Positions 37,850-53,479 of a stretch of 64,000 nucleotides of DNA are shown piece after piece. The position numbers and the translations under genes were made by a program. Below the pieces are notes generated by a model. The model was not told where the DNA came from and ran no database searches. It saw nothing but the letters and a program-made list of their open reading frames with translations. The DNA lies in the IMG/VR virus record IMGVR_UViG_2636415473_000002, positions 19,169 through 83,168 of that record. One strand, written 5' to 3'. The DNA is from a virus (Duplodnaviria > Caudoviricetes). Each line of letters starts with the position of its first letter. Position 1 is the stretch's first letter.

Positions 37850-38062
37850 TTAAATGATCAAATAGAGAGGAAGGTCAGGAGTTTGCGTCTTTTCTCTCTT
37901 TATTGTGCAATAAAACTATGATTTCAAATGAATATTATAGATAAATTTATAAGTTTTATTTGTGTTATTGGTTTAATTGGCATATAATGGTTTTAAGAAA
38001 TAAGGAAGCGGAAAATGTGTTATTAAAGATTAAATTACATAAAATGAACGGATGTTTTAAAA

Positions 38063-38338
38063 ATGACAAATCAAACAGCAACTATCTACTGTCCGGAAAT
38101 GGGAGACACTAAACCACAAGCACAAATTGAAGCTAAGTTTTCAGCAATTATGGGGAAGTTCAGAATATCTACGCCATTGGAACTTAAGGGAAGAGGAATC
38201 AAGTATCACGACACTTACACGGAACACAATTGCAATTCACCTAAATTGTATGGACATAACATCTATTATGTAACAATGGCAGCTTATAAGAAATTAGAGC
38301 AAGAATATACAAGCGCACAAGAAGTATTGTTAGATTAA
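38063..38338 (+). CDS. Hypothetical phage protein
   Basis: 91-aa ORF after a promoter-like AT region. Confidence 0.6.
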   Translation: MTNQTATIYCPEMGDTKPQAQIEAKFSAIMGKFRISTPLELKGRGIKYHDTYTEHNCNSPKLYGHNIYYVTMAAYKKLEQEYTSAQEVLLD

Positions 38339-38362
38339 TGGCACAAAGAGAGGAGAATTACT

Positions 38363-38533
38363 ATGGATAAAGAATCAGTTGGATCAGCATTTTTCGGTGC
38401 GTGTTATCAATTAGGTACTGAACTGCTCTACAAAGAAGATAAAACACCTGCTGAGAGTCAATTTTTAAAACGTCTCGATATGATAATGAACTATAAAGAT
38501 AGTGTCAGAGATGAAGCAGAGTGCGCTCAATAA
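38363..38533 (+). CDS. 56-aa hypothetical protein (paralog at 63833)
   Basis: AGGAG RBS; MDKESVGSAFFGACYQLGTELLYKE..AESQFLK. Confidence 0.7.
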   Translation: MDKESVGSAFFGACYQLGTELLYKEDKTPAESQFLKRLDMIMNYKDSVRDEAECAQ

Positions 38534-38613
38534 ATTCGCTCTTTTAAATTAATTTGAATATCTCCTTTTCTCCCGACATATCAATAAAAAGTACGAAAAA
38601 AGGAGGGGGCTAA

Positions 38614-38856
38614 TTGAAAAAAATTGTGATTGAAGAACATACAGAATACGCTAAAGTTTACCTAATCGATTTTAATGAAGAGGAACCTATTCGACCTACA
38701 CAAAAATTAATGTATCAGGAATTAATAACTAAAATTAATGAACTCATTCAAAAATATAACTTGGAGCCTAATCATAAAATTATCAATGAGCACTATGATG
38801 AAAAACGATACCTAGTTGAACGAATAGAACAAACGGTGGAAGAATATTACTCATAG
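38614..38856 (+). CDS. Hypothetical protein
   Basis: AAGGAGG RBS; terminator follows. Confidence 0.6.
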   Translation: MKKIVIEEHTEYAKVYLIDFNEEEPIRPTQKLMYQELITKINELIQKYNLEPNHKIINEHYDEKRYLVERIEQTVEEYYS

Positions 38857-38996
38857 TGTAGCTCACTGTTCAGTGGGCTTTTCTTATAACTGGCTTCCAA
38901 TTAATCCTACAATCTAGTAAAATATATCCAACACAGTAAACTCACATAGAAAAGGATTGGTACATTCTGACACCGTTACAAGGTTACATAATTCTC

Positions 38997-39338
38997 TTGG
39001 CAGTATTCATTTTAGGTATCGTATTTGATAAAGTAATTAGAAAAATTTTCAATATCAAAAAAGAAAAGGGAAGATCCTACACACATGCGAATAAAATTCA
39101 CAAAAGGGGAGAGTGGATAATTGTAATATTATTTATAATCGTTTTGTTCTATCGATTATCAGTAGCTTCTATTGAACTAGTTCCTGCTCTATTTACTTAT
39201 TTCTTTATTCTGTTTGCCTTCAGAGCATTCATGGAGTGGAAGTACCAACGTGAAACTAGAAAACACATATTGTCTGTTTCAAGTTTAATACTCCTTGTGA
39301 TAAGTGGTTTTTGTTTATATGCGTTCAATATAATTTAA
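38997..39338 (+). CDS. DUF4181-like membrane protein (possibly 5'-truncated)
   Basis: N..HK.GE, FRAFMEWKY..E.R motifs. Confidence 0.7.
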   Translation: MAVFILGIVFDKVIRKIFNIKKEKGRSYTHANKIHKRGEWIIVILFIIVLFYRLSVASIELVPALFTYFFILFAFRAFMEWKYQRETRKHILSVSSLILLVISGFCLYAFNII

Positions 39339-39413
39339 TTTAAAACAAGCCCATCGTTTAATGGGCTATTTTTGATTATATAAATAAAATGCCTCTTCAA
39401 AATAAGTTTTCTG

Positions 39414-39438
39414 GTTTGGTTAAGCGTATAAAGGGTAT
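39414..39438 (+). promoter_or_regulatory. SigB-type promoter
   Basis: GTTTGG-N13-GGGTAT upstream of the yflT-like gene. Confidence 0.7.
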
Positions 39439-39473
39439 TTGCATACAAACAGCTCAACAGAGGAGGAATAGAA

Positions 39474-39956
39474 ATGAATAAAAGAGTATATGGGATTTTT
39501 GATTCGAGTGTAGAAGTGATATCAGCGATCAATGAATTGAAGACAATTGGGTATGATGGAAACGAAATTCTACTTGTAACAGACAAAAAAGATAAATGGA
39601 AATTTTCCTCAGATGTAAATGTCGTGATGGATGAGCCACATGATGAATCATTCATGGAGAAAGTAAAGAATTTCTTTACAGGTGAAAGTGATTCACTGAC
39701 AGAGGGACTTATCGGTATGGGGCTAACTCGGCATAATGCTGCAGCATATTCAGATGATGTAAAAGACGGGAAAACACTAGTGCTTATTGATGAAAACAGT
39801 AACATTAGTAGTGGGATAAATCATCCAATTTCAACCGAACGTAAAAATGGCCCATCAGGTGAAATTATAACAGAGCCCAGTAAGTTGAAAGACCCAGAAT
39901 TTCATGGAACGGTGCGTCTTGGTGACATCAGGGGTGATGAGTATAATCGGAGATAA
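39474..39956 (+). CDS. yflT: General stress protein 17M (YflT family)
   Basis: VYGIFD...AINELK..GY....I; SFMEKVKNFF; Y.DDV..GK.LV. Confidence 0.8.
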   Translation: MNKRVYGIFDSSVEVISAINELKTIGYDGNEILLVTDKKDKWKFSSDVNVVMDEPHDESFMEKVKNFFTGESDSLTEGLIGMGLTRHNAAAYSDDVKDGKTLVLIDENSNISSGINHPISTERKNGPSGEIITEPSKLKDPEFHGTVRLGDIRGDEYNRR

Positions 39957-40120
39957 ACGAAAAGAGGATTAAAATGAGAGGGAGGAAAGAGGTTAGCGTC
40001 TCTTCCTTTCTTTTTTTGCTCACATTAAAATGACCTTTTAAAAGTAAATTTACACGAATTAGACATATGAATAATCATCGCAGCATATAATTAACTATAA
40101 CCACTTAGGAGGTATGGCAT

Positions 40121-40276
40121 ATGCAAAAACTTATACGAATATTAAAACTTCACGAAGTGGAACCGCACGAATTAGCTGAAATGGTTTACTTTTACTTGTA
40201 TCACCATGGAGAAGATACAGACAAAGAATTAATGGATGAGTTATTTGCAGCGTATTTGACAAAAGAGGAAGCCTAG
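40121..40276 (+). CDS. 51-aa hypothetical protein
   Basis: AGGAGGT RBS; terminator overlaps stop. Confidence 0.6.
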   Translation: MQKLIRILKLHEVEPHELAEMVYFYLYHHGEDTDKELMDELFAAYLTKEEA

Positions 40277-40422
40277 AAATTAGGTTTTCTCTTAAATTAA
40301 AAACTTAGATAATTTGGAAACTATTACTTTATAAAGATGAATTTACACGATATTATATATTTGATAGTTAGGAGGCAGAAATAAATAAACAGTCCAATGA
40401 GGATGCAAAGGGGATATGGGAA

Positions 40423-40575
40423 ATGAAACTTAAAAATAAGCAAACTGGGAAGTATCTAACAGTATTATCTAATGGGATCATTACTTGGACTTCAGCAGGA
40501 TCAGTCTTTACCACAGAGGAATTAAATGAATATAGAAATTACTTTTCCAAATCTAATTTATTGGTAGCTGAATAA
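40423..40575 (+). CDS. 50-aa hypothetical protein
   Basis: MKLKNKQTGKYL...; GGGG RBS. Confidence 0.5.
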   Translation: MKLKNKQTGKYLTVLSNGIITWTSAGSVFTTEELNEYRNYFSKSNLLVAE

Positions 40576-40712
40576 CTGAAGAGTTTAAAATAAGTATTTC
40601 ATTCGAAGGAGGTTGGATTCTATGAAAATAAAATACATTTGGAAATGAAGCACTAGAAACCTTTTAAGAAGAAGCTAAAATTCTAATTTTATATAGAAAG
40701 GGGAAATGAGAT

Positions 40713-40943
40713 ATGGTTGAAAAATGGATTGGTGAAGAAGATAATACAAGTGGAACTTATGTGCCAACATCTTGTGAAGAGTTTTCAGAAAGACGAGGAG
40801 GATGTTTGAACGCAAAGAAACTCTATAGATTTAATAGTCGATTTGGGAAAGAATACAATATTACTGACGATGAAGTTGTTGCACGTATCAAAAAATTAAT
40901 AACTGAAGAAAAAAACAGCAGAACTGTACGAATACTTATATGA
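40713..40943 (+). CDS. Hypothetical protein
   Basis: AAAGGGG RBS after palindrome at 40676. Confidence 0.5.
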   Translation: MVEKWIGEEDNTSGTYVPTSCEEFSERRGGCLNAKKLYRFNSRFGKEYNITDDEVVARIKKLITEEKNSRTVRILI

Positions 40944-41120
40944 ATTAGTTATTAAGACATTTGGAATTATGGAATTTATGCATGGAGCTGAATTGAAAAT
41001 CGCAGAAGATCGTAGTAAAGGGTTCAAAAGTGGTAAAGAACATATGCAAGAAGAATTTAGAAAGTTACTAGGTCTTCATTCTATAAGATAAAATGTTAAA
41101 TTGAATGGAGGCAAACAATC

Positions 41121-41285
41121 ATGGCCTATCAAGAATACGTATACGAAGTGTTTAGAGATCATCACGATTGCATGGGAATGGATGAAGAAGAAATCAGTGA
41201 ACTTATTGAAGAAACCTCATTCGCACAAATTGAAAAATGGCTAACGAAAAGCGGATATGATTTAAATGAGTATTACTCAGATTAA
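41121..41285 (+). CDS. 54-aa acidic hypothetical protein
   Basis: GGAGG RBS; MAYQEYVYEVFRDHH... Confidence 0.6.
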   Translation: MAYQEYVYEVFRDHHDCMGMDEEEISELIEETSFAQIEKWLTKSGYDLNEYYSD

Positions 41286-41339
41286 AGATTAATTTATAAG
41301 AAAATCAGAATAACTAAAAATCGCAAAGGAGGAATACAC

Positions 41340-41694
41340 GTGTATCTATTCAAATTTGAAGTAGTGACAAACGAGGCCAAGTTTCATGAGTACATTCAGC
41401 ATGATAATGTTATGGCAGCATGGGAAGTAATTGGCGAGAAATATCCGGTATCTGAAATTACATTGAAACTATTTTGAGGAGGTAGGAGAGTATGATCAAT
41501 CTAAATAAACGTAACATCATCAACTTAAAGAAGGCACCCTTTGCAAATTTAATCAAAAAGCCAATCCAATAATAGGAGGTTTTATTATGTATCAAATGAC
41601 ACCAGAGCAAAATAAAGTGTTGGATGAGTTTTCAAAGCTGCCATACGAAGAGCTATTGGAAAAGTATGATGAGCTGCAGGAAAGGTTGCCTTAG
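41340..41694 (+). other. Three tiny RBS-led ORFs (about 45, 26 and 35 aa)
   Basis: Starts at 41340, 41492 and 41587, each preceded by AGGAG(G). Confidence 0.5.
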
Positions 41695-41762
41695 GAACTG
41701 CCCTTTTGAAAAATTTCACCTGTTTTTAGGTTCGTTTCGTGAAATCGATTTGAAAAGAAATC

Positions 41763-41936
41763 CTAATAAGTGGTTTTAACCAAGCGTTGATACTTATAAA
41801 TCAATTTGTCTAGTTCTTGACTATATTTAATAGTTTCAGGACTTGAGATACCATTGTCCATTCCCGATTTAATCATTTGATTTTTTAACATATTAATTTT
41901 TTTGCACAATACTGTGCGTTTTAATTGTTTTAACAT
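41763..41936 (-). CDS. Spo0E-family aspartyl-phosphate phosphatase
   Basis: Signature ETIKYSQELDKLI..YQ; AGGAG RBS before ATG 41936. Confidence 0.85.
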   Translation of the reverse strand: MLKQLKRTVLCKKINMLKNQMIKSGMDNGISSPETIKYSQELDKLIYKYQRLVKTTY

Positions 41937-42115
41937 AATCGTTTTACTCCTAAAATTTAAGTGTATTAGTAAATTATGCAATAAATTGAATAAAAATGGA
42001 ACAGTTTATTTTTCCGATTTACGAAGAAATGATAATATGTTTAAAATTGCAACAGTCAACATCTAACACAAACTAAACTAGTCTAATTTTTTCCAACTTG
42101 GGAAGGAGGAAGTTT

Positions 42116-42292
42116 ATGGCCGAGGCAAACGCAATTCAAGAAATCTCTTCAATAGCTCGTCATTTGCCACTAGAAGTTTTACAAGATATAAACCAACGTA
42201 TTGGGGATTGGTTGACATCAGGTGGAAATAAAAATGATCCATATATTAGACAGCAATTAAGATTTGCCCAACGTTTTGTGAAGGAAAGTTGA
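42116..42292 (+). CDS. Conserved small phage protein (DUF6877-like)
   Basis: LPLEVLQDINQRIGDWLTSGG..DPYI.QQLRFA. Confidence 0.7.
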   Translation: MAEANAIQEISSIARHLPLEVLQDINQRIGDWLTSGGNKNDPYIRQQLRFAQRFVKES

Positions 42293-42326
42293 CATAAAGA
42301 ATGCGGTAGAAAGGACGTGTAAAAGG

Positions 42327-42680
42327 ATGGAAGAAAACCGATTACAGATGGTCAAAAGTACGTGGGAAAAACGGGATTGGGATACTTTTCTTAATAGAAA
42401 AGATATCGATTGGCTTATTTCACAAGCTGAAAAGGCTGAACGACTGGAAGAAGCGATTAGAATTTACAAACTATCTGATGAATTTGTGAAGGAGCAATCT
42501 AAGAAGGTTAAATACTTATTCCCGTTAGAAAATACTGTTGGATACGGTCAATTATGCGATAAGGTTTTAGAATTAACTGAGGATAAATCGTTCTTTCTAA
42601 AGGCATATACCGAAAAAATATGGAAGAAAGTTGACAAAACCTGTGACATAAGAAAAACCACTAATGATTTAATGGTTTAA
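42327..42680 (+). CDS. Hypothetical phage protein
   Basis: DIDWLI.QAE motif typical of Bacillus phage early proteins. Confidence 0.6.
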   Translation: MEENRLQMVKSTWEKRDWDTFLNRKDIDWLISQAEKAERLEEAIRIYKLSDEFVKEQSKKVKYLFPLENTVGYGQLCDKVLELTEDKSFFLKAYTEKIWKKVDKTCDIRKTTNDLMV

Positions 42681-42719
42681 CTAAAAGTTTTATATTTTAA
42701 GTCAGAGAATTAAAGAATA

Positions 42720-42917
42720 TTAAGAACCTGTAGCCTTAAGTATTCCAAACACAATTAAGAGAAACCCTAATAAAATTGCTCCACCTTCAAGTGGAAAAGT
42801 ACTTGCTGTTTTATTATTAAATGCTTTTGCTTCATTAAAAAAATAAATAATAGCAAAAACAACAATCACTATGCCTAATAAGGATACTAATAGCCAAATC
42901 ATAAGAGTATTCTCCAT
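42720..42917 (-). CDS. Small two-TM membrane protein
   Basis: Two hydrophobic helices. Confidence 0.55.
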   Translation of the reverse strand: MENTLMIWLLVSLLGIVIVVFAIIYFFNEAKAFNNKTASTFPLEGGAILLGFLLIVFGILKATGS

Positions 42918-43078
42918 GAATTTTATTTTTTATTATGACAGCTTTTAAAGGAAATAGGAAGAAGAAATTGATGTATAAATAGTATGACTAAACTGTTTGA
43001 CATTAAAAGCGTGGTTTTATTAGATTGATAACGATGAAAAATGGAGCATTTAAGAGTAAACGTAAGCATGGGGGAGGA

Positions 43079-43423
43079 ATGAAGTTGGGATACGAAATTG
43101 ACAGGTTAATTGCTGAAAAGGTTATGGGATGGACTTCTGACGGATATCTATATCACGATATGATAACGGGCGATATGTGTTCGATAAATGAATTTAGGCC
43201 TTCAGAAGATTTAGAGGATGCTTGGTTAATAGTTGAGAAAATAAGCTACGGAAACACGGAATTGATTTTTGATCTAGAACTTAGATATAAAGGGTTTTGG
43301 GCATATTTTACTGACGGGAAAAGTGATGATTACAGCTCTGAGCAAGAAAAAACAGCACCGTTGGCAATTTGTGTGGCAGCATTAAAAGCAACCGGTGTAA
43401 ATATTGAAGAGGAGGTTATTTGA
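43079..43423 (+). CDS. Phage ABA-sandwich domain protein
   Basis: EIDRLIAEKVMGW, PSEDLEDAWLIVEK, TAPLAICVAALKA. Confidence 0.8.
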   Translation: MKLGYEIDRLIAEKVMGWTSDGYLYHDMITGDMCSINEFRPSEDLEDAWLIVEKISYGNTELIFDLELRYKGFWAYFTDGKSDDYSSEQEKTAPLAICVAALKATGVNIEEEVI

Positions 43424-43470
43424 ATGGATAAAAAAGTGAAAGTAGACATAGAAAAGATGGAGGATATAAA

Positions 43471-43674
43471 ATGAACATCAACATTAATGAATTCGTCAAA
43501 TTAAATGAGTTTCCACAAGAAGGATTTAGAGAAGTTAAATGGAATGTTAATGAAAATTATGATCATCATACGTTAACACTTAAGGATGGATACGGCAATA
43601 CTCTAACATTATTCAATGATGAATTAGATAAACTTTATGATTACTTAGGTTCGGTGTTGTTTTATAAAGGGTAA
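43471..43674 (+). CDS. Hypothetical protein
   Basis: GGAGG RBS. Confidence 0.6.
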   Translation: MNININEFVKLNEFPQEGFREVKWNVNENYDHHTLTLKDGYGNTLTLFNDELDKLYDYLGSVLFYKG

Positions 43675-44072
43675 CGTTATAGTTTAATATGGTGCACATT
43701 AAATTTAACCTTTTAATGGGGGCGCTAAACTAAATGTGAAAATCCTCTGCCATTGGACAGAGGGAGATAATTAATAGAAGTTATTCTGACCAACTATTAA
43801 TCTTACCTTCATTTAAGTTTTGATTTTGCTTCCAATCAATATAGTTGTTGGTGTCATTATTGTTCCAAATCTGATTATCTTCAACTTTTGGATTTGGAAC
43901 GCTCCATAAAAAATATAGGATTCCAATGCCGATTGCACCAATGAATAACACGGCTTTCAATTTTTCTTTAGAATGATTTCTCTTATAATTTCTAGCTGAT
44001 GATGATCTCTTATCTTCTGCTTCCCATCTTTTAACTGGTGAATTTTTAATAAACTAGGAGGGGATAGATATA

Positions 44073-44867
44073 GTGGCTAAAAAGATAAAGAAAACAGAAG
44101 AAGAATTAAAAGCCGAAAGATTGGAATATGAATTAAACGAGGTAAAAGAAAAACTCTACTTGATACCTGAGCCTATATATACATTTGAAATTGGCCAACA
44201 AGTTGGTATCGGAAATTTGAAAGATGTGATTGTAAAAAATTCACTTGAAGGCGGAAAAATATATTTGATCGATTACACTTCCGTTGACCACAATAGAGGA
44301 AATCCAATAAGACACGAACATCGACTGAGGTATGTTACTCGGTTAGACATTAGGAAGTTGCCTGCGAAAACGGAATCATTCATACGAAATAAGAACATGA
44401 GACTCAATTACTCTAATCAGAATATAGCCTCTTTATTAAGTAAGGCTTACTATTTCGGTGTTAATTTTGATCTGGATTATCAACGAGAGTATGTTTGGGA
44501 ATTGGGAGGCAAGGTGAATTTAAATGATTCTGTTTTTAATAATATTGATATTGGTAAATTTGTTTTTGTTAGATATAACAGTGAGACGTGGAGTAAATTG
44601 AATTTGAGTTATGAGGTATTGGATGGTAAACAGAGAATGAGAGCCATTTTAGATTATTACGAGGACAGATTTGAATATGAAGGTAAAAAATTCAGCGATT
44701 TGACACTAAGGGATCAAGGTCACTTTGAAAACTACCCTATACCAATTGCTGAAATCGATGAGTTGCCAAGAAAGGGAATAATCAGATTCTTCATCGCTTT
44801 GAATACTAATGGTAAAGTGATGGATAGTAATCATTTAGACAATGTTAGAAAGATGATAGAAGAATAA
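44073..44867 (+). CDS. DUF262 (GmrS/ParB-like) domain protein
   Basis: DYQREYVW, IG.FVF, YEVLDGKQR, F..LN..G. Confidence 0.82.
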   Translation: MAKKIKKTEEELKAERLEYELNEVKEKLYLIPEPIYTFEIGQQVGIGNLKDVIVKNSLEGGKIYLIDYTSVDHNRGNPIRHEHRLRYVTRLDIRKLPAKTESFIRNKNMRLNYSNQNIASLLSKAYYFGVNFDLDYQREYVWELGGKVNLNDSVFNNIDIGKFVFVRYNSETWSKLNLSYEVLDGKQRMRAILDYYEDRFEYEGKKFSDLTLRDQGHFENYPIPIAEIDELPRKGIIRFFIALNTNGKVMDSNHLDNVRKMIEE

Positions 44868-45312
44868 TATCTAATAAAATGCAGATTTCATAAAGAAAAG
44901 ATTGTGAAATGAAGTTAGAAATTACAATGTTTATAGTTTTTTTTGACAGGTGTTTTCACAATCTTTATTTATAAAGATAAAATTACGAATTATACAATAT
45001 GGTGAAGTGGAGATGTTGCTATGAAAACCTATCTTAAATCATTCGTTGTGAATAATTCATTTTTAATTACATTAACTCTAATTATATGGGCTTATAGTAT
45101 GTATGAGTGCTTTAAATAGGAGGGGCGAGTGAACGGATAAAGATGATCAATGATCTTACAGATATGAGACTAAATTAATTGAGAAAAAGGTGAAAAGAAA
45201 AATCCAAAGGAGAAAATAGCTTGCTTGGATAGTAAGTTCATAATTTAGATTATTATTTCTGTATAATAGAAACTATATGGTGTAATTTTACTAAAAGGGG
45301 GTTGAACTATAA

Positions 45313-46413
45313 ATGGGTTTAGGATTTAGAAAGAGTTTTAAAATAGCACCTGGAGTAAGATTAAATGTTTCAAATCGAGGAGTAGGAATGAGCGCAGGCG
45401 TTAAAGGATTAAGATATAGTGTTAACTCTAGAGGTCAGCGTAGAACAACAGCAAGCATTCCAGGGACTGGAATATCATACACCACGACTTCTAGTTCAGG
45501 TAGAAAATATAAGTCTGCTGCACAGCAAAATAGACAACAGTTGCTTAGGCAACAGAAAGAAATAGCTAAACAAGAAGAGTTACAAAGAGCAAGGTATGAA
45601 GTTGAAATGTATGAGAATAAAATTGAACTTATCCATTCTATACATAAGGAATGTGACGATATTTTTGATTGGCAAGAAATCGCATCGTCTACTCATCCTA
45701 ATCAATTCAATCAACAAGGAAAACATGAAATAGAGGCTAGAGAGAAATTGAACACATTCAAGCCAAGTTTCATACAGAAGATATTAAAAACGAATGATAA
45801 AGCAGAGCAGAAATTGAGGATAGAGGTAGAAAAAGCAAAAGAACTTGACCAAAAAGAATACATGGAGCTCAAAAAAACAATTGAATTGGCCAATAGGATA
45901 TTGAATAAAGATGTGGATGCTTATTTTGAAGTTATCGAAGAATTGTCACCACTTGATGATCTATTAGAGTTTGGTAGTGGTTTTGAGTTTTTTATAGATG
46001 ACCCAATGGTACTGGAGGTAGAATTTGATGTTCAATCAAAAGAAGTTGTACCAAAACAAGTAAAGACTCTGACTAAGACAGGTAAATTATCTGTAAAAGA
46101 TATGCCGTTGACTAAGTACTATGGCATATTTCAAGATTATGTATGCAGCTGTTCAATTAGAATTGCTAGAGATATGTTTGCGATACTTCCGTTTGAAAGG
46201 GTAATAGTCCATGCAAAGGATGAGCATTTAGACACTTCAACAGGAAGAAATACAGAAGCGACGATTTTATCTGTGGAATTTGATGAGATCACACTTAATC
46301 AATTGAATTTTGAAGCTATTGATTGCTCTGATTCGATGGAAAATTTTAATCATAACATGAAGTTTTTAAAAACAAAAGGATTTCAACCTGTTAATAAAAT
46401 TGTTGCAAGATAA
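45313..46413 (+). CDS. DUF4236 domain protein
   Basis: GFRKSFKIAPGVRLNVS..G...S.G...T.SIPGTGISY. Confidence 0.85.
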   Translation: MGLGFRKSFKIAPGVRLNVSNRGVGMSAGVKGLRYSVNSRGQRRTTASIPGTGISYTTTSSSGRKYKSAAQQNRQQLLRQQKEIAKQEELQRARYEVEMYENKIELIHSIHKECDDIFDWQEIASSTHPNQFNQQGKHEIEAREKLNTFKPSFIQKILKTNDKAEQKLRIEVEKAKELDQKEYMELKKTIELANRILNKDVDAYFEVIEELSPLDDLLEFGSGFEFFIDDPMVLEVEFDVQSKEVVPKQVKTLTKTGKLSVKDMPLTKYYGIFQDYVCSCSIRIARDMFAILPFERVIVHAKDEHLDTSTGRNTEATILSVEFDEITLNQLNFEAIDCSDSMENFNHNMKFLKTKGFQPVNKIVAR

Positions 46414-46704
46414 TCTTTCTACTGGAAGATGATAGTCTGCTAGAAGTAAGATTTAACATAGTTGGAGTAAAAAAATAATTAAAAATAATGTAACATTTCA
46501 ATGTGAAATTAACGTTAGAAAGCCTAATTGCACAGGCTTTTTCTTTACTCTAAAATAATAAAGATAAAATTATAAAATAAACAAAAGGACATTGCGGTGG
46601 GTTGGATAGATGTGGTAAGATGAATTTAAGAAAACAGACAGTAATAAAAGAAGAGTTTTATCAAAAAAGCTCTGATAGAGGAAAGATCTAACAGAGCAAT
46701 GGTA

Positions 46705-46977
46705 TTACCTTTCACATGCAATACCGTCTTTATCTCGATCGAGTTTTTTGTTTGCATTGTACAATTCAGCGTTAACAGTTGGCTTGTACTTAGTTTTACC
46801 GCCTACGTTCTTTGCTGTTGATGATTTAGAAACTCCACCTTTATATACCTTATTTAACTCAGTGCAGTTTTTAAATGATTTGGGTGCAGCTTGAACATCA
46901 ATTTGACTACCAAAAGAAAGAGTTACTAGAATTATTCCAGAAAAAAGTAATATTGAAATCTTTTTCAAGTGTATCAC
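46705..46977 (-). CDS. Secreted excalibur calcium-binding domain protein
   Basis: Signal peptide; FKNCTEL...LDRDKDGIACE. Confidence 0.88.
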   Translation of the reverse strand: MIHLKKISILLFSGIILVTLSFGSQIDVQAAPKSFKNCTELNKVYKGGVSKSSTAKNVGGKTKYKPTVNAELYNANKKLDRDKDGIACER

Positions 46978-47110
46978 CTCCTTTATAATATATCCATATA
47001 TTATCTTTTATGTTATTGTTTAGTCAATATGTGCTAGATATAAAGTATTGATAATTTATATAAATATCCACGCGAATAAAAAATCTCTTTTATTGTAAGA
47101 GGAGAAAGAT

Positions 47111-47560
47111 ATGAAAAAAGAAGTTATTATGAAATTAATACCTAATATGAGTTATTTAAAACCAAAGCCTACTCAAAAAGATGCCATAAGACAGTTAATT
47201 TATGTTCCGGAAGAATATGTCGATTTGTTAATACAGAGAGACATGAAAACTACTTGGCCAAATGCAATGCTGATTATCAGTAGTATTGGGTTTCCCAAAA
47301 ATGAGAATTCGATTCCTTCACTTCTATTTTTAATGCAGGATATAAATTGGCCTGGTGCAATTGAAGCAGTTGAGATAGTAAAGAATATTGGAAAACGATC
47401 AGTATTACCATATTTAGAGGATGCATTAGAAATAGCTTACAAAAGCGAAGATTATATGTGGATAGGAGGATTAAAATATTTAGTAGACAGCCTCAATATA
47501 ATTGAAAGTGACTTCTGTAATTTACAAAACTATGAAACTCTGCAACTAGCTGATTTTTAA
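47111..47560 (+). CDS. DUF5071-like helical protein
   Basis: W.NA...I..IGFP.N...IP.LL..MQDINWPG. Confidence 0.65.
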   Translation: MKKEVIMKLIPNMSYLKPKPTQKDAIRQLIYVPEEYVDLLIQRDMKTTWPNAMLIISSIGFPKNENSIPSLLFLMQDINWPGAIEAVEIVKNIGKRSVLPYLEDALEIAYKSEDYMWIGGLKYLVDSLNIIESDFCNLQNYETLQLADF

Positions 47561-47609
47561 CTGCTAAATAAGTGATTTAAAACAAGACATCTATAAGGGA
47601 GAGATAATA

Positions 47610-48104
47610 ATGTATACAGTCCAACAATTACAAGCCTTGGAATATCTACTAAAACGAATATCAGCAAATAACAAATTCAATTTTTATCGAAGAGAATTAA
47701 AACTTGTAATAGAGTACAAAGGGACATTATATACAGGAGACTTTTTGCAAATGAGCAGCTCGTTTGCTTATCAGAATTACATAGACGATGAAGGGGAAGT
47801 CGATCAAGTCCGTTTTAGCCCAGATAGGGGATCAAAGATTTTAAATGATATATGGCAAATTTATCTGAGAGAAGTTAATAGATTATTTTACAATCCATTT
47901 AAACATATCAACGATATCCCTTTACTATTTAATACATTAGTAAAGATTCTTGAAACGGCCGAAATTGACGATGAAAGCAGTCCATTTTATCCTTATTTAT
48001 TAAATGCAAGATCAATCGATAATACTATTAATCTTCCTTTGATTAATTTAGATGGGGAAAAAATTAAGTTAGTATCAATAATTGATTGTACGGAGAACCA
48101 ATAA
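47610..48104 (+). CDS. Hypothetical protein
   Basis: 164-aa ORF with RBS and terminator. Confidence 0.65.
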   Translation: MYTVQQLQALEYLLKRISANNKFNFYRRELKLVIEYKGTLYTGDFLQMSSSFAYQNYIDDEGEVDQVRFSPDRGSKILNDIWQIYLREVNRLFYNPFKHINDIPLLFNTLVKILETAEIDDESSPFYPYLLNARSIDNTINLPLINLDGEKIKLVSIIDCTENQ

Positions 48105-48185
48105 GAGTATTAAGTTTCTAAGTGAAGAGAATATCCTTTTCACTTAGAATGATAAAACAGGTAATTTAAAGGGAGGTGGATTAAC

Positions 48186-48359
48186 ATGAACAAAGAAAAA
48201 CTACTTGATCACTGATGGGAAATGCATATTTATCATCAACGAGAAGCCGATAAATTTGAGAATGGTGAAGTTGAAGAGTCTAGAAAACACTACCAAACAG
48301 TAGCAGATGTATATTTTAAAATGTATCAAGAAGTTGGAGCTGGAGATTTTGACGAATGA
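48186..48359 (+). pseudogene. Small ORF with internal stop
   Basis: GGAGGT RBS; MNKEKLLDH*WEMHIY... Confidence 0.5.
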
Positions 48360-48557
48360 AAGGAGTGGGAACATGCTAAAAAACGAGCAGAGCTATTACA
48401 GTTTAAATGGGTCATTTGAAGCACTACATATATTATTAATAAAGATGTGAAATAGCTAGAAGAGATGTATTCATTTTTACTAAGCGATATAAAACACGTA
48501 GATGAACAGATGGCGAAATTAGAAAATAATTCTAAATTGCATTAAATCGAATAATTT

Positions 48558-49244
48558 ATGATGAAAGGGAATGGAATAATGAATAAAATGGTTAGTGAAA
48601 TTAATAATATCAAAAATCATCTTAAAGAAATTTCTTTAGAACTGATGCCAATATTTGAAGATGCTTTGAGTCTTGCTCCAAGTATCAGTGCTTTTATAAA
48701 TTACAGAAAATTTAACAGACTGGACAGAAGAATTACAAAGAAGTCTGAACAATTGAAAAGAATATCTATGTATGCTCCACACACAAAACTCTTAGATGAA
48801 TATATTAGTGAGAGAATATCACCAATAGTTTTAGCTGACATCATAGAAGAACACGAAGATGCTAAGATAGTATTAAGTTTAAATGGCTTTGAGAACGTTT
48901 TTATCGAAGAGAATAGTTATGAGGCCGCGGTAATAAGTTATTTTGACACCTTAAGATCACTTAGGTACGTTGATATAAAAAGGTTGTTCTATTTAGCAGG
49001 AAAAATTGATAATTATCCTCCTCCTATTGAAGATAGTGAAGAACACGCTATTATGAGAAATAGCGATATGAAATTAAAAAATATGGGTCTAATAGGAGAG
49101 GTTACAGGATTTAGTTTTGGGACTATTGATAAGGATAGAGATATTTTAAAAAATGATATTTATTTAAGTTTGCATGCTGAGAAGTTTATTAATTTCATTT
49201 CGTTAGAAAAAGCTAACAACGCACATCTTTTGTTACCTAAATAA
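48558..49244 (+). CDS. Hypothetical protein (possibly Abi-alpha-like)
   Basis: N-terminal helix, D.LRSL..DIK.L, L..MGLI, ..FI.FI C-terminal pattern. Confidence 0.5.
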   Translation: MMKGNGIMNKMVSEINNIKNHLKEISLELMPIFEDALSLAPSISAFINYRKFNRLDRRITKKSEQLKRISMYAPHTKLLDEYISERISPIVLADIIEEHEDAKIVLSLNGFENVFIEENSYEAAVISYFDTLRSLRYVDIKRLFYLAGKIDNYPPPIEDSEEHAIMRNSDMKLKNMGLIGEVTGFSFGTIDKDRDILKNDIYLSLHAEKFINFISLEKANNAHLLLPK

Positions 49245-49304
49245 AATGACAATTTTAAAGTGACACACAATACACAAAATGCGAAGTAAGAGAGGGAGAT
49301 ATCT

Positions 49305-49490
49305 GTGGAGAACAAAAAATATGAAGTTGATTGGCATGTTAGAGATATGGATTTTAACTACTTTGTGGGTACTGAGAATGTGTTAGTTTCTGACGAAAAC
49401 AACGCAATAGAAAGCGCAACACAAATTGTTTCAAGAAAATTAGGTTTGCAACGACATCTCATGATTATTAAGACAGTTAAAGTTGTTTAG
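49305..49490 (+). CDS. Hypothetical protein
   Basis: GAGGGAG RBS, GTG start. Confidence 0.55.
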   Translation: MENKKYEVDWHVRDMDFNYFVGTENVLVSDENNAIESATQIVSRKLGLQRHLMIIKTVKVV

Positions 49491-49728
49491 TGCACAATTC
49501 GAAAATTATGTGCAATAAAATAACTACTTTAAAGATAAATTTACTAAAATAGCATTTGGTAAATTGGTATTTGTGGTTATATTAAGTATACTTTAACATG
49601 ATTTTAATTTACTAATTATTATAAATAATCCAAATTAGTACTAGAGAATGCATACGGTGTTATGGTATCATATTGGTGTCGACATAAAAATGCAAAATAC
49701 AACAATTTAATTAAAGGAGCAATCTAAC

Positions 49729-49917
49729 ATGAAGAAATTCATAATCAAAGATAATAATTCGAGTCAAATCACAGGGAAGCAAGTATTCCTCAAAGCAGAT
49801 AATACACAAACTTTGAACTTTGACTATGCTCATGTATATCCTGAAGTAGAAGCATTCAATATAGTAGAACATGATGATAACATGGAATTGATTGAGGTCA
49901 ATGTAGTAGTTGTTTAA
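49729..49917 (+). CDS. 62-aa hypothetical protein, paralog 1
   Basis: TG.QVFLKA.NTQ shared with 50072. Confidence 0.7.
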   Translation: MKKFIIKDNNSSQITGKQVFLKADNTQTLNFDYAHVYPEVEAFNIVEHDDNMELIEVNVVVV

Positions 49918-50071
49918 GGAGTTAGATAAATACATAGCTTTTGAATCGCTAACCCAATCGGTGGGACACCAATGGATGAAGATATGAAGCAATCTAATTT
50001 ATATTTTGAATAAACTTCGTATCTTCATTCATTGACTATATAAAATTTATTATAAAGGGGAGCTAAATAAA

Positions 50072-50260
50072 ATGAAAAAATACGTAATTTTAGATACTGT
50101 TTCAACTAAATTAACTGGGCAACAAGTATTCCTTAAAGCAAATAACACACAAGTATCAAACTATGATCGCACGCACGTATTTCTTGAGGATGAGGCATTA
50201 GTTATAAAGAGCAATAATGATAAACTGGAATTATTCGAAGTAATTGTTTCATCAATTTAA
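50072..50260 (+). CDS. 62-aa hypothetical protein, paralog 2
   Basis: TG.QVFLKA.NTQ shared with 49729. Confidence 0.7.
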   Translation: MKKYVILDTVSTKLTGQQVFLKANNTQVSNYDRTHVFLEDEALVIKSNNDKLELFEVIVSSI

Positions 50261-50488
50261 AAGTAACTTTACACAATTCGTGATAAATGAACGTATGATG
50301 AATTAAGAGCTCTTGTTAACAAATAGGAGGGATCATATGTCACCTAAGGATAAGTTGATAGCAAAACTTCATCAAGTAAGTGAGTTGGCTATACGAGCAG
50401 AATTGTCGCTGCATGGACTGAAACCTAGTGAGTTTATCAGTAAGGAAATATTGATGAATATGCTTGTAACAGTATATTTTGGGGACGG

Positions 50489-50698
50489 GTGATTATTATG
50501 TTTGAAAAAGTATCTGAACGCCTTGGCGTAAATATTGATAAAGTAATTTTACATAAAGATGAAACTGAAAAATGTAAGTTAAAACGTGCTTTAAAGAAAG
50601 AAATTTTTAAAGAAAAAACTAGAATCGCTATGATCAAAAGGTCGAACCAAGAAAACTATGAAGCCTTAAAACGATTAGATGATCAATATGCAGTTTGA
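50489..50698 (+). CDS. Hypothetical protein
   Basis: ORF with weak RBS. Confidence 0.45.
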   Translation: MIIMFEKVSERLGVNIDKVILHKDETEKCKLKRALKKEIFKEKTRIAMIKRSNQENYEALKRLDDQYAV

Positions 50699-51718
50699 CT
50701 AATTGATTGCACTAAATAATAAGGAGAATGTTCAGAATGACTAATAAGATAAATTTATTAAATGAAGCTTTCGGTATACTTGCGAGATATAGCTTGGTAT
50801 CTAGTATGGATATTGAATTACGAATGAGAATTGAAAATCATTACAAAAGCTTGGAGGGAGAAGAAAATGTATCTTATCAAGTGGGTTGAGGATGGAGAGA
50901 ATAAGTCATTTGTGGCCGAGGGATATATAGAGCGCCTGGTGTGTGAAGAACGACTCGAAAATAAAGGTATTGAATTCAATAGTTGTTTATTATAAGTGTA
51001 TTTACAATTAAATCACGATTTTAATAGAATGTGGATAAAAACTGCAAAGGAGTGAAGAAAGATGTATATCAATAAAAATAAGGAATTAAAACCGGGTACT
51101 TACTACTTTAATCGATATGGCATGCGAATTAAATATGTTGTTAAATAATAGCATAGTTCAACTAAACTTGATAGTAGACACAAATTGTGAACCAAAAACA
51201 AGGAGTGATAACATGACAGAAAAAGAAAAATATTTTCTCGAAGATACAAGAGATATTCTAGTTAATTACGATGGATGTAAGTCGGAACAGCAATTAAAAG
51301 GCCTTATAGATGAAACACGAGAAAGATTAACAGTTTTTTAAACGGTAAAATTCAAGAATATGAAGATTCACTTTAATGAACACTACTATAAAAACAGAAA
51401 TTCATCAGATTAGATTTGTAGAGGAGAGTATACTTTACATAACCAATCTGACATGGGCGACAGCTAAATAGTCTTTTTCATTCCGCAATTACGACATTCA
51501 CGTAGGAATAAGCCATTCTTTCTCGAAGAATTAAAGTGAGCATAATCACAATTGTCGCAACGGGCATATTGTATGTCTGGCATTTCTTTATAGGTATAAG
51601 TTTTAGATAAGTCAATTTCTTTAGTTGCATCAGTCATTTAAATCACCTCATAGAAAAATTCACAACCTGACTAATATATCAAAACAGCAGATTAAAAGCA
51701 AAGACGGAAAAGCCCGCG

Positions 51719-51934
51719 TTAGCAGACTTCATCATCGTATTCAGCTTCCCATGAAACTTCTACATTATTAATCTCGCTCTTCTTGGAGTCAAAAATGATT
51801 TCCCTACCATTGGTAGTAGTGATAATAACCTTTGTGTCTTTGATAATATCATCATGTAGTGAAATACCTGCTTCTTCAATCGAACCACCATTAAACAAAA
51901 CTAAGTCAATTTTAACTTGAGCATAAACATCCAT
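51719..51934 (-). CDS. Acidic hypothetical protein
   Basis: AGGAGGGG RBS before ATG 51934. Confidence 0.6.
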   Translation of the reverse strand: MDVYAQVKIDLVLFNGGSIEEAGISLHDDIIKDTKVIITTTNGREIIFDSKKSEINNVEVSWEAEYDDEVC

Positions 51935-52085
51935 TGGAACCCCTCCTAGTGTTAGTATATAATGTAATTGTGAGTAAAGGCGCATCAATTAAGTTAATAA
52001 CACACAATTTAAAAGGTTTTGTAAAACATTAAAATTACATAAAGACACACAGTGAAACTGTGTATGGATTAGAGGTTGTCTTTTA

Positions 52086-52745
52086 ATGGATATTATAGGG
52101 CAAAGATTAAAATGGCTAAGGGAGAAAAAAAGGTATGGACAAAAAGAAGTAGCTGGTAATATAGGATTAACTACAAGTGGCTATCAAAAAATGGAATATG
52201 GGGAAGCAAACCCTAAAGTTGACACATTAATTAAAATATCTCAGTTCTATAATGAAAGTTCAGATTTTTTATTAGGGTTATCTGATCATACGAGAAAGCT
52301 ACAAGAAATTGATGAAAAATTGAGGTTTTTAATAGGTGATTTAAAGATTACAGAGAAAGAATTTCTAGATGTGTATTTTAATGAAAAAGTGTCTGAAGAT
52401 GCTAAGAACGACCTAGCAAAAAGAGTTAGTAAGTTAAAAAGGGAGGTTGACTATTACCAGGAGGAATATTCAAGGAAAATTGTTAAAATACCCAATATTA
52501 ACTTGAGTAACAACAGTATCTTAAAAGATAGAGTACCATTAGAAATTTTTATTATAGAAGAAAAGTCTAGTGGAAATTGGTTTATTACCTTGGAAGACAA
52601 CAGATGTGAACAATTGGCTCGTATGACGGAAGAAAATACAAAAGAAAAAGCTATAGAATTTGCAGAAATGATAAAAGAAAAGAATGGAATTGAATATACA
52701 GTTGAGGAAGAATCATATCTAGATATGAGTGAGAATTGGGATTAA
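52086..52745 (+). CDS. XRE-family HTH regulator with long C-terminal domain
   Basis: IGQRLKWLR..QKEVA..IG.T..GY..ME.G..NP..S.DFLLG. Confidence 0.9.
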   Translation: MDIIGQRLKWLREKKRYGQKEVAGNIGLTTSGYQKMEYGEANPKVDTLIKISQFYNESSDFLLGLSDHTRKLQEIDEKLRFLIGDLKITEKEFLDVYFNEKVSEDAKNDLAKRVSKLKREVDYYQEEYSRKIVKIPNINLSNNSILKDRVPLEIFIIEEKSSGNWFITLEDNRCEQLARMTEENTKEKAIEFAEMIKEKNGIEYTVEEESYLDMSENWD

Positions 52746-52782
52746 TAAATTAATCATTTTATGAGACGGCGGCGGAGCTATA

Positions 52783-53094
52783 ATGAAGATAATTGGTGAA
52801 AGAATTAAGGAAATCAGACTTTCAAAAAGGCTAACTCAGGAAGAATTGGCCGACAAGCTTGAATTAACAAAATCTTATATCTCCAAATTGGAAAACGGGA
52901 TTACAATTCCAAGTATTTATTTTCTGTATAATCTAGCTGACATTTTCGAAGTTACAATACAAGACTTCTTTGGAGAAACAAACAGAACAAACAATGATAA
53001 TAAATGGACTTCTGTTAATGATTATTTCGACAATCACAATATAAGTCCAGATGAAGTATTAATGCTGTTTAATATCCTAAGAAAGCTAAAATAA
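52783..53094 (+). CDS. XRE-family HTH regulator
   Basis: IGERIKEIR..TQEELA..YISKLENG..PS. Confidence 0.92.
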   Translation: MKIIGERIKEIRLSKRLTQEELADKLELTKSYISKLENGITIPSIYFLYNLADIFEVTIQDFFGETNRTNNDNKWTSVNDYFDNHNISPDEVLMLFNILRKLK

Positions 53095-53167
53095 AAGAAA
53101 TATTTTAAAGAAAAGAGCTGATGATATGTAAAATCGAAAAAACGCCCAAATAGGCGCTCTTGGAGAG

Positions 53168-53311
53168 TTACTTAGATTCTTCATCATCATTGAGTAACAT
53201 CTTAGCATTCTCGTCTACTAAACCATAACCGGGGATGTGACCAGTTTTCACTTCGTGATATTTAGTTCCTGAGTCATCAGATTTACTATTTGTACGTGCG
53301 TCTTTAACCAT
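53168..53311 (-). CDS. 47-aa hypothetical protein
   Basis: AGGTGGTG RBS; MVKDARTNSK... Confidence 0.5.
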   Translation of the reverse strand: MVKDARTNSKSDDSGTKYHEVKTGHIPGYGLVDENAKMLLNDDEESK

Positions 53312-53479
53312 AATTATCACCACCTATAGGGAGGGATATATTGTGTGTAGATCAGTTATTTATTCTTTATTGGAATTGTGTTAAAATGCTATTTATTGTG
53401 GTATCATTGTGCATTTACATATGATTAATCACATTAATTTGTTATAATTGAATTATTGTTATTCTTAGGAGGAAGTTTA

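Follow-up and report, generated by a model that had tools for sequence, protein, structure and literature searches.

Does a short palindrome that recurs at the gene boundaries of a prophage-like region delimit a set of mobile gene cassettes, or does it serve a dispersed regulatory system? This question is raised by 64,000 nucleotides, here called the window, that correspond to positions 19,169 to 83,168 of the viral record IMGVR_UViG_2636415473_000002 (IMG/VR; Duplodnaviria, Caudoviricetes). From the letters of the window alone, an earlier note described 18 perfect and near-perfect copies of TAAAA-N6-TTTTA, a dyad of two five-base arms around six variable bases, and took them as the borders of an integron-like cassette array in an SPbeta-like element, with a dispersed operator as the alternative. 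The dyad motif is real and stronger than the earlier note had it, and the region is not an integron-type capture platform. The explanation preferred here, which is held with middling confidence, is that the dyads are a dispersed and strictly conserved operator of the SPbeta supergroup of phages, read by a putative phage protein and retained here by two prophage remnants in tandem, in which it may have lost its function.

A dyad with fixed spacing in a single island

In the window, the perfect dyad occurs seven times, with starts at 40676, 43004, 46645, 47077, 49242, 53092 and 63618. The expected number is 1.07, and none of 100 dinucleotide-preserving shuffles reaches seven. The earlier note had listed the first six of these copies, all of which are present, and the copy at 63618 is an addition. 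The excess is tied to the length of the spacer: N6 gives seven copies, every other spacing from 0 to 20 gives 0-2, and the opposite order of the arms gives 0-5 copies per spacing. Both the enrichment over background and the six-base preference on which the cassette proposal had been staked are borne out by these counts.

The host genome (5.43 Mb) contains 73 perfect dyads and 102 copies of a reversed-pattern control, and there is therefore no global excess. Fourteen of the 73 lie inside C1:1849853-1897441, a 48-kb stretch equivalent to window coordinates 40676-88264, and they form the sole cluster in the host genome. This stretch is part of a region of ~60 kb, termed the island, that extends from ~37.9 to 99.9 kb in window coordinates; coordinates above 64000 fall beyond the end of the window. 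In the host genome minus the island, N6 is not in excess (59 copies compared with 56-93 at other spacings), and positions 1-38000 of the window, which include an ordinary neighbouring prophage, have no perfect dyads. A host transcription factor was rejected as the binder on the ground that N6 is not in excess outside the island.

When all 5-mer dyads at spacings 0-12 are counted without bias, TAAAA-N6-TTTTA ranks at the top of the island with 14 copies against a mean of 1.17. The dyad that ranks second is the same one moved by one base; most copies are therefore ATAAAA-N6-TTTTAT, and the conserved unit is 16 bp in length, or 18 with the A/T flank. The degenerate pattern T[AG]AAA-N6-TTT[CT]A has 23 sites in the island against 0-7 at other spacings. 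Since these sites run from 37911 to 95368, past 53107 and past the end of the window, the limits of 37911-53107 first given to the array were too narrow.

The same dyad in related phages

Is the dyad peculiar to this island? The phages compared were all selected by way of a homologue of MrpR, the SPbeta repressor, and a link between the dyad and MrpR is outside what this sample can judge. The dyad is enriched at N6 in 13 related phages counted, with 17-36 perfect copies per genome. In spacing scans, the perfect copies at N6 number 29 in Goe14 (0-3 at other spacings), 16 in the 50-100 kb part of SPbeta (0-2), 30 in Geobacillus virus E3 (1-8), 17 in Psychrobacillus phage Perkons (0-3), 23 in Tsamsa (1-5), 33 in FADO (0-9), 23 in vB_BcoS-136 (0-6), 17 in Staphylococcus phage SPbeta-like (1-4) and 36 in Mammaliicoccus phage phi6255 (1-3). 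Counts over whole records were set against the reversed-pattern control and gave 34 dyads to 2 in SPbeta, 31 to 2 in Goe14, 22 to 2 in Izhevsk, 28 to 1 in pW2, and 30 to 2 and 30 to 1 in the phi3T-SPbeta hybrids MT366947 and PP526179, respectively; phi3T has 30 perfect dyads. The family of dyad sites would belong to the SPbeta supergroup, large temperate siphoviruses of Bacillaceae and Staphylococcaceae. Two phages do not follow this pattern, namely Brevibacillus phage Sundance with 0 dyads (control 4) and Alicyclobacillus phage KKP_3916 with 2 (control 1).

Within the phages, dyads occur across whole genomes and are found in structural operons as well. The annotation of the SPbeta record from 50001 to 134416 includes two other palindromes and many stem-loops, and none of the TAAAA-N6-TTTTA dyads. 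As a separate observation, other dyads are over-represented in two of the phages, AATAC-N2-GTATT in Sundance (8 copies against 0.25) and TATAA-N5-TTATA in Tsamsa (11 against 0.75), and these may be the operators of their respective MrpR homologues.

Near-perfect copies and the tolerated arm variant

The 12 near-perfect copies of the earlier note comprise ten with one arm mismatch and two with two mismatches (47565 and 48543). As a class, one-mismatch copies are not clearly enriched at N6, either in the island (39 compared with 15-37 at other spacings) or in Goe14 (28 compared with 22-51). Once single substitutions are counted one by one, an A to G change at the second arm base, giving TGAAA or TTTCA, is the only one that is enriched. 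At N6, this variant numbers 7 in the island (against 2.0), 25 in Perkons (against 3.2) and 6 in Goe14 (against 2.4). This TTTCA class backs the copies at 37911, 40586 and 44875. The other nine near-perfect copies (38531, 40025, 43700, 47565, 48153, 48543, 49516, 51008 and 52746) are like background, and the one at 40025 is a perfect N5 copy that begins at 40026. About nine of the 18 copies in the original list are thus supported, namely all of the perfect ones and three of the 12 near-perfect ones.

The tolerance of G at the second arm position varies among phages. This variation, together with a host chromosome that has no N6 excess, points to a phage-encoded, co-evolving reader rather than a host factor. 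Base composition as the cause is also argued against by the fact that a single arm substitution is tolerated, and to a degree that differs by phage. In Perkons, a second form with both arms changed (TGAAA-N6-TTTCA) is also seen, 10 times against 1.3, and the degenerate pattern totals 52 sites in that phage.

Selection, placement and structure of the dyad

The most direct view of what is conserved comes from orthologous sites. Between Tsamsa and pW2, which belong to different genera of one subfamily, arm bases are identical at 120 of 120 positions and spacer bases at 50 of 72, while the flanks are 82% identical. The values for Tsamsa and Izhevsk are 140/140 in the arms, 77/84 in the spacers and 94-95% in the flanks; for pW2 and Izhevsk they are 129/140, 52/84 and 80-82%. 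From these identities, the ten arm bases and the distance between them are under purifying selection, with the sequence of the spacer left free. Goe14 has a weak added symmetry in the flanks, TCT-N3-TAAAA...TTTTA-N3-AGA, that amounts to ~11 bp per arm; the flanks in E3, Perkons and Tsamsa add just an A before the core and a T after it.

Of the 322 perfect sites in 12 phages, 260 lie mostly in non-coding DNA, which makes up 14-22% of the sequence of these phages; these statistics and those for the island are based on crude gene calls. As a rule, the phage dyad occupies the gap from a stop codon to the next ribosome-binding site (RBS). The distance from the dyad to the following Shine-Dalgarno sequence is at most 3 nt for 15 of 23 sites in Tsamsa; in E3, 15 of 30 sites have one no more than 13 nt on, and in Goe14, 13 of 29 have one no more than 16 nt on. 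Turning to the island, all 14 perfect copies lie outside open reading frames (ORFs) or across a stop codon, in agreement with the earlier placement of the sites at gene boundaries, and 13 of the 14 are mostly non-coding where the non-coding share of the island is 44%.

To assess folding, energies were computed on a single strand of each site with 6 nt on either side. The island sites have no stable hairpin (mean -0.84 kcal/mol against -0.89 kcal/mol in shuffles). The Tsamsa sites are marginal at -2.64 against -1.17 kcal/mol in shuffles, and the E3 sites reach -0.08 kcal/mol at 60 C. An extended hairpin was looked for as well, and flank positions -2/+2 and -3/+3 have no complementarity. The conclusion is that the dyad is read by its sequence; most simply, it would be read as double-stranded DNA by a symmetric dimer.

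A sigma-70 promoter was also tried and rejected: oriented alignments have no conserved -35 element, and pattern matches in 37500-57400 number 104 against 103.5 in shuffles. Some sites give a -10-like TAAAAT, and one (43004..43019) falls in the 18-bp spacer of a sigma-70-like pattern match, with no consistent arrangement among them. Aside from the dyads, the same 37500-57400 stretch contains 14 terminator-like hairpins against 5.7 in shuffles. One example is at 46517-46542, and another on the minus strand at 53138-53161 stands directly past the dyad at 53092.

The island as two SPbeta-like prophage remnants

The genes and dyads of the island that fall in the window are collected in Table 1. The order yopP-yopQ-yopR/yopS is the same as in SPbeta and Goe14, with tblastn identities of 29-46%, and the yopS-like gene is divergent from yopR as in SPbeta-like phages. 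The first piece of the yopP-like gene matches Pfam Phage_int_SAM_1 and Phage_integrase, and the gene matches the YopP-like genes of E3, Perkons and Goe14 by tblastn. The MrpR-family gene scores 4e-25 with Pfam MrpR_N_CB and 2e-25 with MrpR_C_cat; homologues of it occur in 76 phage records, and a search of genome contigs with the MrpR homologue found one locus, 94% identical. The earlier note's two recombinase-fold genes downstream of the array are accordingly a split yopP-like gene and this MrpR-family gene. The two Xre-type helix-turn-helix (HTH) proteins encoded at 52086..53094 are possible binders of the dyad.

Table 1. Dyads and neighbouring genes of the island within the window (window coordinates)
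Feature	Position	Strand	Remarks
Dyad, variant arm (TAAAA-N6-TTTCA)	37911..37926		First island site; 62 bp past the end (37849) of a chemotaxis-receptor gene
First collinear array (small genes, S1, yopP, yopQ, yopR)	38346..58469	+	From self-comparison
Dyad, variant arm (TTTCA)	40586..40601		Right before an RBS; homology block common with second array stops here
Perfect dyad	40676..40691		~20 nt upstream of ATG at 40713
Perfect dyad	43004..43019		In gap between minus-strand ORF 42720-42902 and a plus-strand ORF
Dyad, variant arm (TTTCA)	44875..44890		7 nt past stop of DUF262/GmrSD_N-like gene 44073-44867
Perfect dyad	46645..46660		Between convergent ORFs 45313-46413 (+) and 46705-46968 (-); upstream of no start
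Perfect dyad	47077..47092		18 nt ahead of start at 47111; adjoins RBS
Perfect dyad	49242..49257		ORF 48558-49244 ends on its TAA, used as stop codon
Two Xre-type HTH regulator genes (219 aa and 103 aa)	52086..53094	+	Pfam HTH_3; NCBIfam RstR-family below cut-off
Perfect dyad	53092..53107		Its TAA serves as stop for the 103-aa HTH gene 52783-53094
S1-domain gene, host-gene-like	53456..53908	+	Second copy, 89% identical, precedes second yopPQR module
yopP-like tyrosine recombinase gene	54385..55358	+	Split in ORFs 54385-54942 and 55020-55358
yopQ-like DndB/DGQHR-family gene	55458..56813	+	Pfam DndB 2.9e-13; 29-40% identity to phage genes
MrpR/YopR-family gene (SPbeta repressor family)	56816..57808	+	Tyrosine-recombinase fold
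yopS-like HTH gene	57935..58300	-	Pfam HTH_26/HTH_3; 46% identity over 69 aa to Goe14
Perfect dyad	63618..63633		Opens second array, which runs beyond the window to 95368

By self-comparison, the first array matches 63816-87237 in 15 ordered blocks of 70-89% identity. These collinear blocks identify the island as a tandem pair of diverged elements of a single type, which may be the outcome of either a tandem double insertion or an old duplication. The second yopQ/yopR pair is at 84639-86969, 41% and 45% identical to the first, and includes the second MrpR-family paralogue at 86001-86969 (45% identical). The second yopP-like copy is fragmentary too. Other matches to Goe14 by tblastn are thyA/dfrA fragments and an sspC-like gene, which keep the order of Goe14, and an 87-aa ORF at 94209-94472; beyond these and the yop genes, tblastn found nothing further of Goe14 in the island. 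With so little of the Goe14 gene set remaining, the island is a gene-poor prophage remnant. The earlier description of an SPbeta-like element therefore holds, by virtue of the yopP/Q/R/S synteny, in the sense of a decayed relative.

The rest of the island consists of small ORFs and host-like genes, some of them truncated. The latter include genes for a short-chain dehydrogenase, a TetR regulator, a DinB-like protein, a periplasmic binding protein, a cupin, half of a major facilitator superfamily transporter, a Crp-like regulator, an RNase T-like exonuclease and a PAP2 protein. ORFs called in the 38-53 kb portion are mostly on the plus strand, with five on the minus strand, and a megablast search of 37900-53200 against the phage collection gave no match. 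Among the cargo of the first array are a phage ABA-sandwich gene (43025-43423) and the GmrSD N-terminal (DUF262) gene at 44073-44867, the latter being suggestive of defence-related cargo.

On the left, the island is bordered by the chemotaxis-receptor gene 35735-37849; on the right, by lexA (100010-100633), followed by a resolvase-like gene, sirA, a ccdA-like gene and sbcCD. The sequence from 99921 onward (99921-129510) is 90-92% identical to relative G024, which has a shorter mosaic island at the same place. The first 20 kb of the window are a separate, ordinary siphovirus structural module without dyads. Between this prophage and the island are methyl-accepting chemotaxis genes (32095-33840 and 35735-37849), a peptidase M15 gene and, on the minus strand, an AbiC-like gene (24987-25862). 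These chemotaxis, AbiC-like and M15 genes could be either host genes or prophage cargo.

Tests of capture and recombination

If the dyads delimited cassettes in the strict sense, captured and excised by a downstream recombinase, then an integrase, folded sites and breakpoints within the spacers would be the places to look. The integron integrase model (NCBIfam TIGR02249) gives 24.4 and 16.9 bits on the two MrpR-family proteins, where the cut-off is 265, and has no match on the yopP-like pieces; XerC/XerD models give 47 bits on the split yopP-like gene against cut-offs of ~330. The 16-bp sites, with the folding energies given above, are unlike attC hairpins, which are imperfect palindromes of some tens of bases that fold as single strands. 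As for breakpoints, seven comparisons yielded 600 homology-block ends, a single one of them in a 6-bp spacer. Between the island and G024, 3 of 54 block ends come within 15 bp of a site (0.9 expected) and 0 of 54 are in a spacer; between the two arrays of the island, the corresponding values are 2 of 78 (1.3 expected) and 0 of 78. The strict integron reading, which was the headline of the earlier note, fails since the integrase, attC-fold and breakpoint tests are all negative, and the alternative offered in the same note, a dispersed operator, fits the evidence better.

A weaker form of that idea holds that the dyads are preferred crossover points for module exchange, whether site-specific by one of the three tyrosine-recombinase-fold paralogues of these phages or by short conserved homology, as a phage analogue of dif-module or PeSL-type shuffling. 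Several observations from Spbetavirus support it. When the 50-100 kb part of SPbeta is aligned by blastn with Goe14, 12 of the 30 internal block ends come to within 14 bp of a site, and the yoqD block, 99.9% identical in the two phages, has a site at both ends. Some junctions coincide with the left edge of a site and others come 4-6 nt past its right edge, so that the site is kept with either neighbour and appears to travel with one or the other. Among intergenic gaps compared between SPbeta and phi3T, a block end is present in 15 of 30 site-bearing gaps and 27 of 143 others (odds ratio [OR] 4.3, p 0.00075); for SPbeta and Goe14, in 16 of 30 and 30 of 143 (OR 4.3, p 0.00057). The comparisons of phi3T with SPbeta and with Goe14 give an OR of 3.1 (p 0.014). 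The parental-identity intervals of two phi3T-SPbeta laboratory hybrids have eight borders, four of which are within 8 bp of a site.

Other observations speak against it. Restricting the comparison to gaps of similar size (25-120 bp) removes the significance of the association (OR 0.8-3.3, p 0.087 to 1). Mosaic junctions are expected in site-bearing gaps anyway, because those gaps are longer and often at operon borders. The crossovers of the hybrids cannot be placed relative to sites since they are inside stretches of 1.4-18 kb that are identical in both parents. Tsamsa compared with pW2 or Izhevsk has no significant gap association (OR 1.25-1.98, p 0.23 or more), and block ends near sites number 0 of 112 for FADO against Tsamsa, 0 of 104 for vB_BcoS-136 against Tsamsa and 1 of 65 for phi6255 against the staphylococcal phage. 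At site 78916, the relative has a 1-kb insertion that abuts the left edge of a one-mismatch copy and has no site at its other end; likewise, only one end of the yopZ-yoqC block of SPbeta carries a site. The spacers of orthologous sites diverge (50/72 where flanks are 82% identical for Tsamsa and pW2), which does not favour spacer-matched strand exchange. A looser reading of the dyads as preferred joints is possible for Spbetavirus alone.

SPBRE, MrpR and candidate binders

By chromatin affinity purification sequencing (ChAP-seq), MrpR of SPbeta has been reported to give ten peaks, at promoters that carry SPBRE, a 15-bp motif (Kohm et al. 2023, PMC10516654, in the portion of that paper available here). 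The SPBRE sequence was derived here from the SPbeta upstream regions of seven of the ten genes named in that paper. An A/T-rich element with a ATATGTAT core is common upstream of yonP, yonT, yonX (twice), aimR, yopM, yopV and yorE, and a dyad scan of SPbeta recovers it as ATACA-N7-TGTAT, with 6 copies against a mean of 0.17. The TAAAA-N6-TTTTA dyad differs in sequence from SPBRE, the MrpR operator. Of the SPbeta upstream stretches considered, those of aimR and yorE also contain a dyad and those of yonP, yonT, yonX, yopM and yopV do not; the dyad near yosX likewise adjoins an SPBRE-like run, as judged by the Goe14 flank. Of the 14 SPBRE-core matches in SPbeta, five have a dyad no farther than 120 bp away, one of them overlapping it, where random placement would give 0.8. 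Examples of such close pairs in the SPbeta record are 76171/76205, 99498/99590 and 129214/129297, the aimR, yorE and yosX promoters being among them. The island has no SPBRE cores.

Which protein might read the dyad? A tblastn comparison, which is weak for small HTH proteins, found no ORF of Goe14 or Tsamsa with a match in each of the eight other dyad-positive phages and none in Sundance. The proteins common to the dyad-positive phages include tape measure, terminase, primase, ribonucleotide reductase and three tyrosine-recombinase-fold paralogues. The YonO polymerase was considered as well, with the dyad as its promoter, and rejected: the available part of the YonO report describes a single late promoter, upstream of yonK (PMC5467207).

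One of the proteins with a tyrosine-recombinase fold, YomM-like, is encoded at 31647-32654 of the Goe14 record, within the late structural operon, and has homologues in E3, Perkons, Staphylococcus SPbeta-like phage and Mammaliicoccus phi6255. Its identity across host families is 54-70%, as compared with mostly 23-45% for the other shared non-metabolic proteins. At the position of the second catalytic arginine, the SPbeta-type, E3 and Perkons proteins have a lysine (HxxK) and the Tsamsa-type proteins keep HxxR. A YomM-like gene has no match in the host genome that carries the island.

Weighing the explanations

In the preferred explanation, a dimer of an element-encoded protein would read the double-stranded dyad through two half-sites of 5-6 bp with centres 11 bp apart. 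The dyad would then act as a dispersed operator, or 'punctuation' element, that controls polycistronic early and accessory genes, and the favoured version is a roadblock or silencing mechanism like that of mycobacteriophage stoperators. The array in the island is probably a relic or only partly functional. A number of observations weigh against this explanation. Only four of the 14 perfect island sites have an RBS within 21 nt, three island sites lie between convergent ORFs, and the positions of the dyads are not kept between the two arrays; these facts make a function of the dyad in the island doubtful. The fixed place beside the RBS in Tsamsa would suit a translational operator at the RNA level equally well, and the greater frequency of breakpoints in the site-bearing gaps of Spbetavirus is explained by an operator only indirectly. 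No dyad-binding protein was singled out by the phyletic comparison, for the proteins common to eight dyad-positive phages also match in dyad-negative Sundance (tblastn against Goe14). YopQ was rejected as the reader: Pfam DndB has no match in the dyad-positive phages Tsamsa, pW2, FADO and vB_BcoS-136, and YopQ therefore cannot read the dyad. Finally, the MrpR peaks of SPbeta carry SPBRE and not the dyad, as far as the available portion of PMC10516654 goes. A more ambitious reading, which is regarded as doubtful, makes the dyad the cis element of a genome-wide system across the SPbeta supergroup, from Bacillus and Geobacillus to Staphylococcus, in which a dedicated phage protein would bind 20-50 strictly conserved intergenic sites. 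It would thereby either silence the prophage one cistron at a time or catalyse the exchange of gene modules, at fixed positions, between phages resident in one host. The YomM-like protein is one candidate binder for such a system and, if the system exists, the junction data of Spbetavirus would be the footprint of the binding protein.

Among the competing explanations, a recombination joint is equally doubtful. The geometry of arms and spacer (5-6-5) resembles tyrosine-recombinase core sites with their 6-bp spacer, and the junctions, gap statistics and hybrid borders of Spbetavirus, together with the two-site yoqD block, are what it would lead one to expect. It is harder to reconcile with the near-total lack of block ends in spacers, the loss of significance in size-matched gaps, the absence of any effect in Tsamsa-type and staphylococcal-type pairs, and the few island ends near sites. 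In addition, the yopP-like genes of the island are all in pieces and the genome has no YomM-like gene detected. An element that works in RNA instead, an AU-rich bipartite mRNA motif 5' of the Shine-Dalgarno sequence that is bound by an RNA-binding protein or nuclease of phage or host and sets the translation or processing of single cistrons, is unlikely. It would account for sites between stop codon and RBS (with the RBS 0-3 nt on at 15 of 23 Tsamsa sites) and inside long co-directional operons, and an S1-domain gene stands ahead of each yopPQR module of the island. Set against it are the strict dyad with invariant arms and no compensatory changes, the non-complementary -2/+2 and -3/+3 flanks, a hairpin that is marginal and melted at the growth temperature of the E3 host, and the three island sites between convergent ORFs. 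Moreover, at 39 of 99 perfect sites in E3, Perkons, Tsamsa and Goe14, and at 10 of 14 in the island, there is either no RBS plus start within 80 nt on either side or the nearest is more than 20 nt away.

There is a still smaller chance that the dyad is the operator of the island's own MrpR-family repressors, as a local equivalent of SPBRE. Two MrpR-family genes do stand at the ends of the two arrays, the derived SPBRE has a similar geometry (a 5-bp dyad with a 7-bp spacer), the island lacks an SPBRE core, and SPBRE cores lie near dyads in SPbeta more often than expected. In SPbeta, though, dyad and SPBRE are different sequences, and the available portion of PMC10516654 does not report the ~30 other dyads as peaks. 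The same dyad core is found in phages with MrpR homologues that are only 25-37% identical, and Sundance and KKP_3916 have MrpR homologues without the dyads. The strict cassette platform is highly improbable: dyads at the gene boundaries of a variable region with recombinase-fold genes downstream first suggested it, but the integrase model is far under its cut-off, no attC-like folded site exists, breakpoints are outside the spacers with no excess in the island, dyads are spread throughout phage genomes, structural operons included, and the array is not bounded at 53107. Least credible is a compositional artefact of A+T-rich intergenic DNA. The arms are indeed A/T-only and the one-mismatch copies are at background level; however, the excess is restricted to N6 in the window, the island and the 11 spacing-scanned phages, and four further records beat the reversed control. 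There is none in the equally A+T-rich Sundance, in the prophage-containing 1-38000 or in the host genome, and arms are kept at 120 of 120 positions where the flanks are 82% identical. A dispersed operator continues to be the preferred explanation.

Novelty and significance

A description of the dyad was not found in an SPbeta review, a preprint on SPbeta relatives, the MrpR paper and its preprint, or the papers on Tsamsa and Perkons; this search did not extend to the 1999 SPbeta genome paper or to supplements. A literal search of the literature for the motif had one match, in an unrelated paper on an archaeal regulator. A prior description of the dyad may exist.

SPbeta and phi3T serve as model temperate phages in work on arbitrium signalling, MrpR repression and the YonO polymerase. 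With 30-34 copies in each genome and arms that do not vary across host families, the 16-bp dyad would rank as a major cis element of both. Should it be an operator, it would constitute a second genome-wide layer of control in addition to that of MrpR; should it be a recombination joint, it would account for the reshuffling of hypervariable accessory regions rich in defence and counter-defence genes. The dyad is also a cheap annotation marker of SPbeta-supergroup DNA, as it picks out the single decayed island in a 5.4-Mb genome.

Comparison with known systems

Several known systems resemble the dyads in part. Integrons have repeated sites at the borders of gene units near a tyrosine-recombinase-fold gene; the dyad system differs in having no IntI, in its 16-bp non-folding sites, in breakpoints that lie elsewhere and in a genome-wide spread. 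The dif-like sites that flank modules on plasmids, and Xer-type core sites, have inverted arms around a 6-bp spacer, to which the Goe14 symmetry of ~11 bp per arm and the two-site borders of some modules may be likened, whereas the island, E3, Perkons and Tsamsa keep only 5-6 bp per arm. The start-associated sequences (SAS) of cluster K mycobacteriophages and the PeSL elements of T4-type phages are conserved, intergenic and upstream of some genes. SAS is an RBS-linked asymmetric box, and PeSL, a promoter with a stable stem-loop, occurs in hypervariable regions of small genes and is a proposed mediator of module shuffling. The dyad, too, is intergenic and just upstream of a subset of genes, but both of these elements are longer, and the dyad has neither a conserved -35 nor a stable fold.

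SPBRE shares with the dyad the character of a short A/T-rich intergenic dyad that is repeated in SPbeta-type elements and near an MrpR-family gene. It differs in being of the ATACA-N7-TGTAT type, with ~10-14 copies at promoters compared with 30-34 dyads mostly within operons. In cluster A mycobacteriophages such as L5, the stoperators have an asymmetric sequence that follows the direction of transcription; the immunity repressor binds them, and they vary from one immunity group to the next. Like the dyads, they are tens of strict, short sites in gene gaps across a temperate phage genome, often over stop codons; unlike them, TAAAA-N6-TTTTA is symmetric and identical across phages of different host genera.

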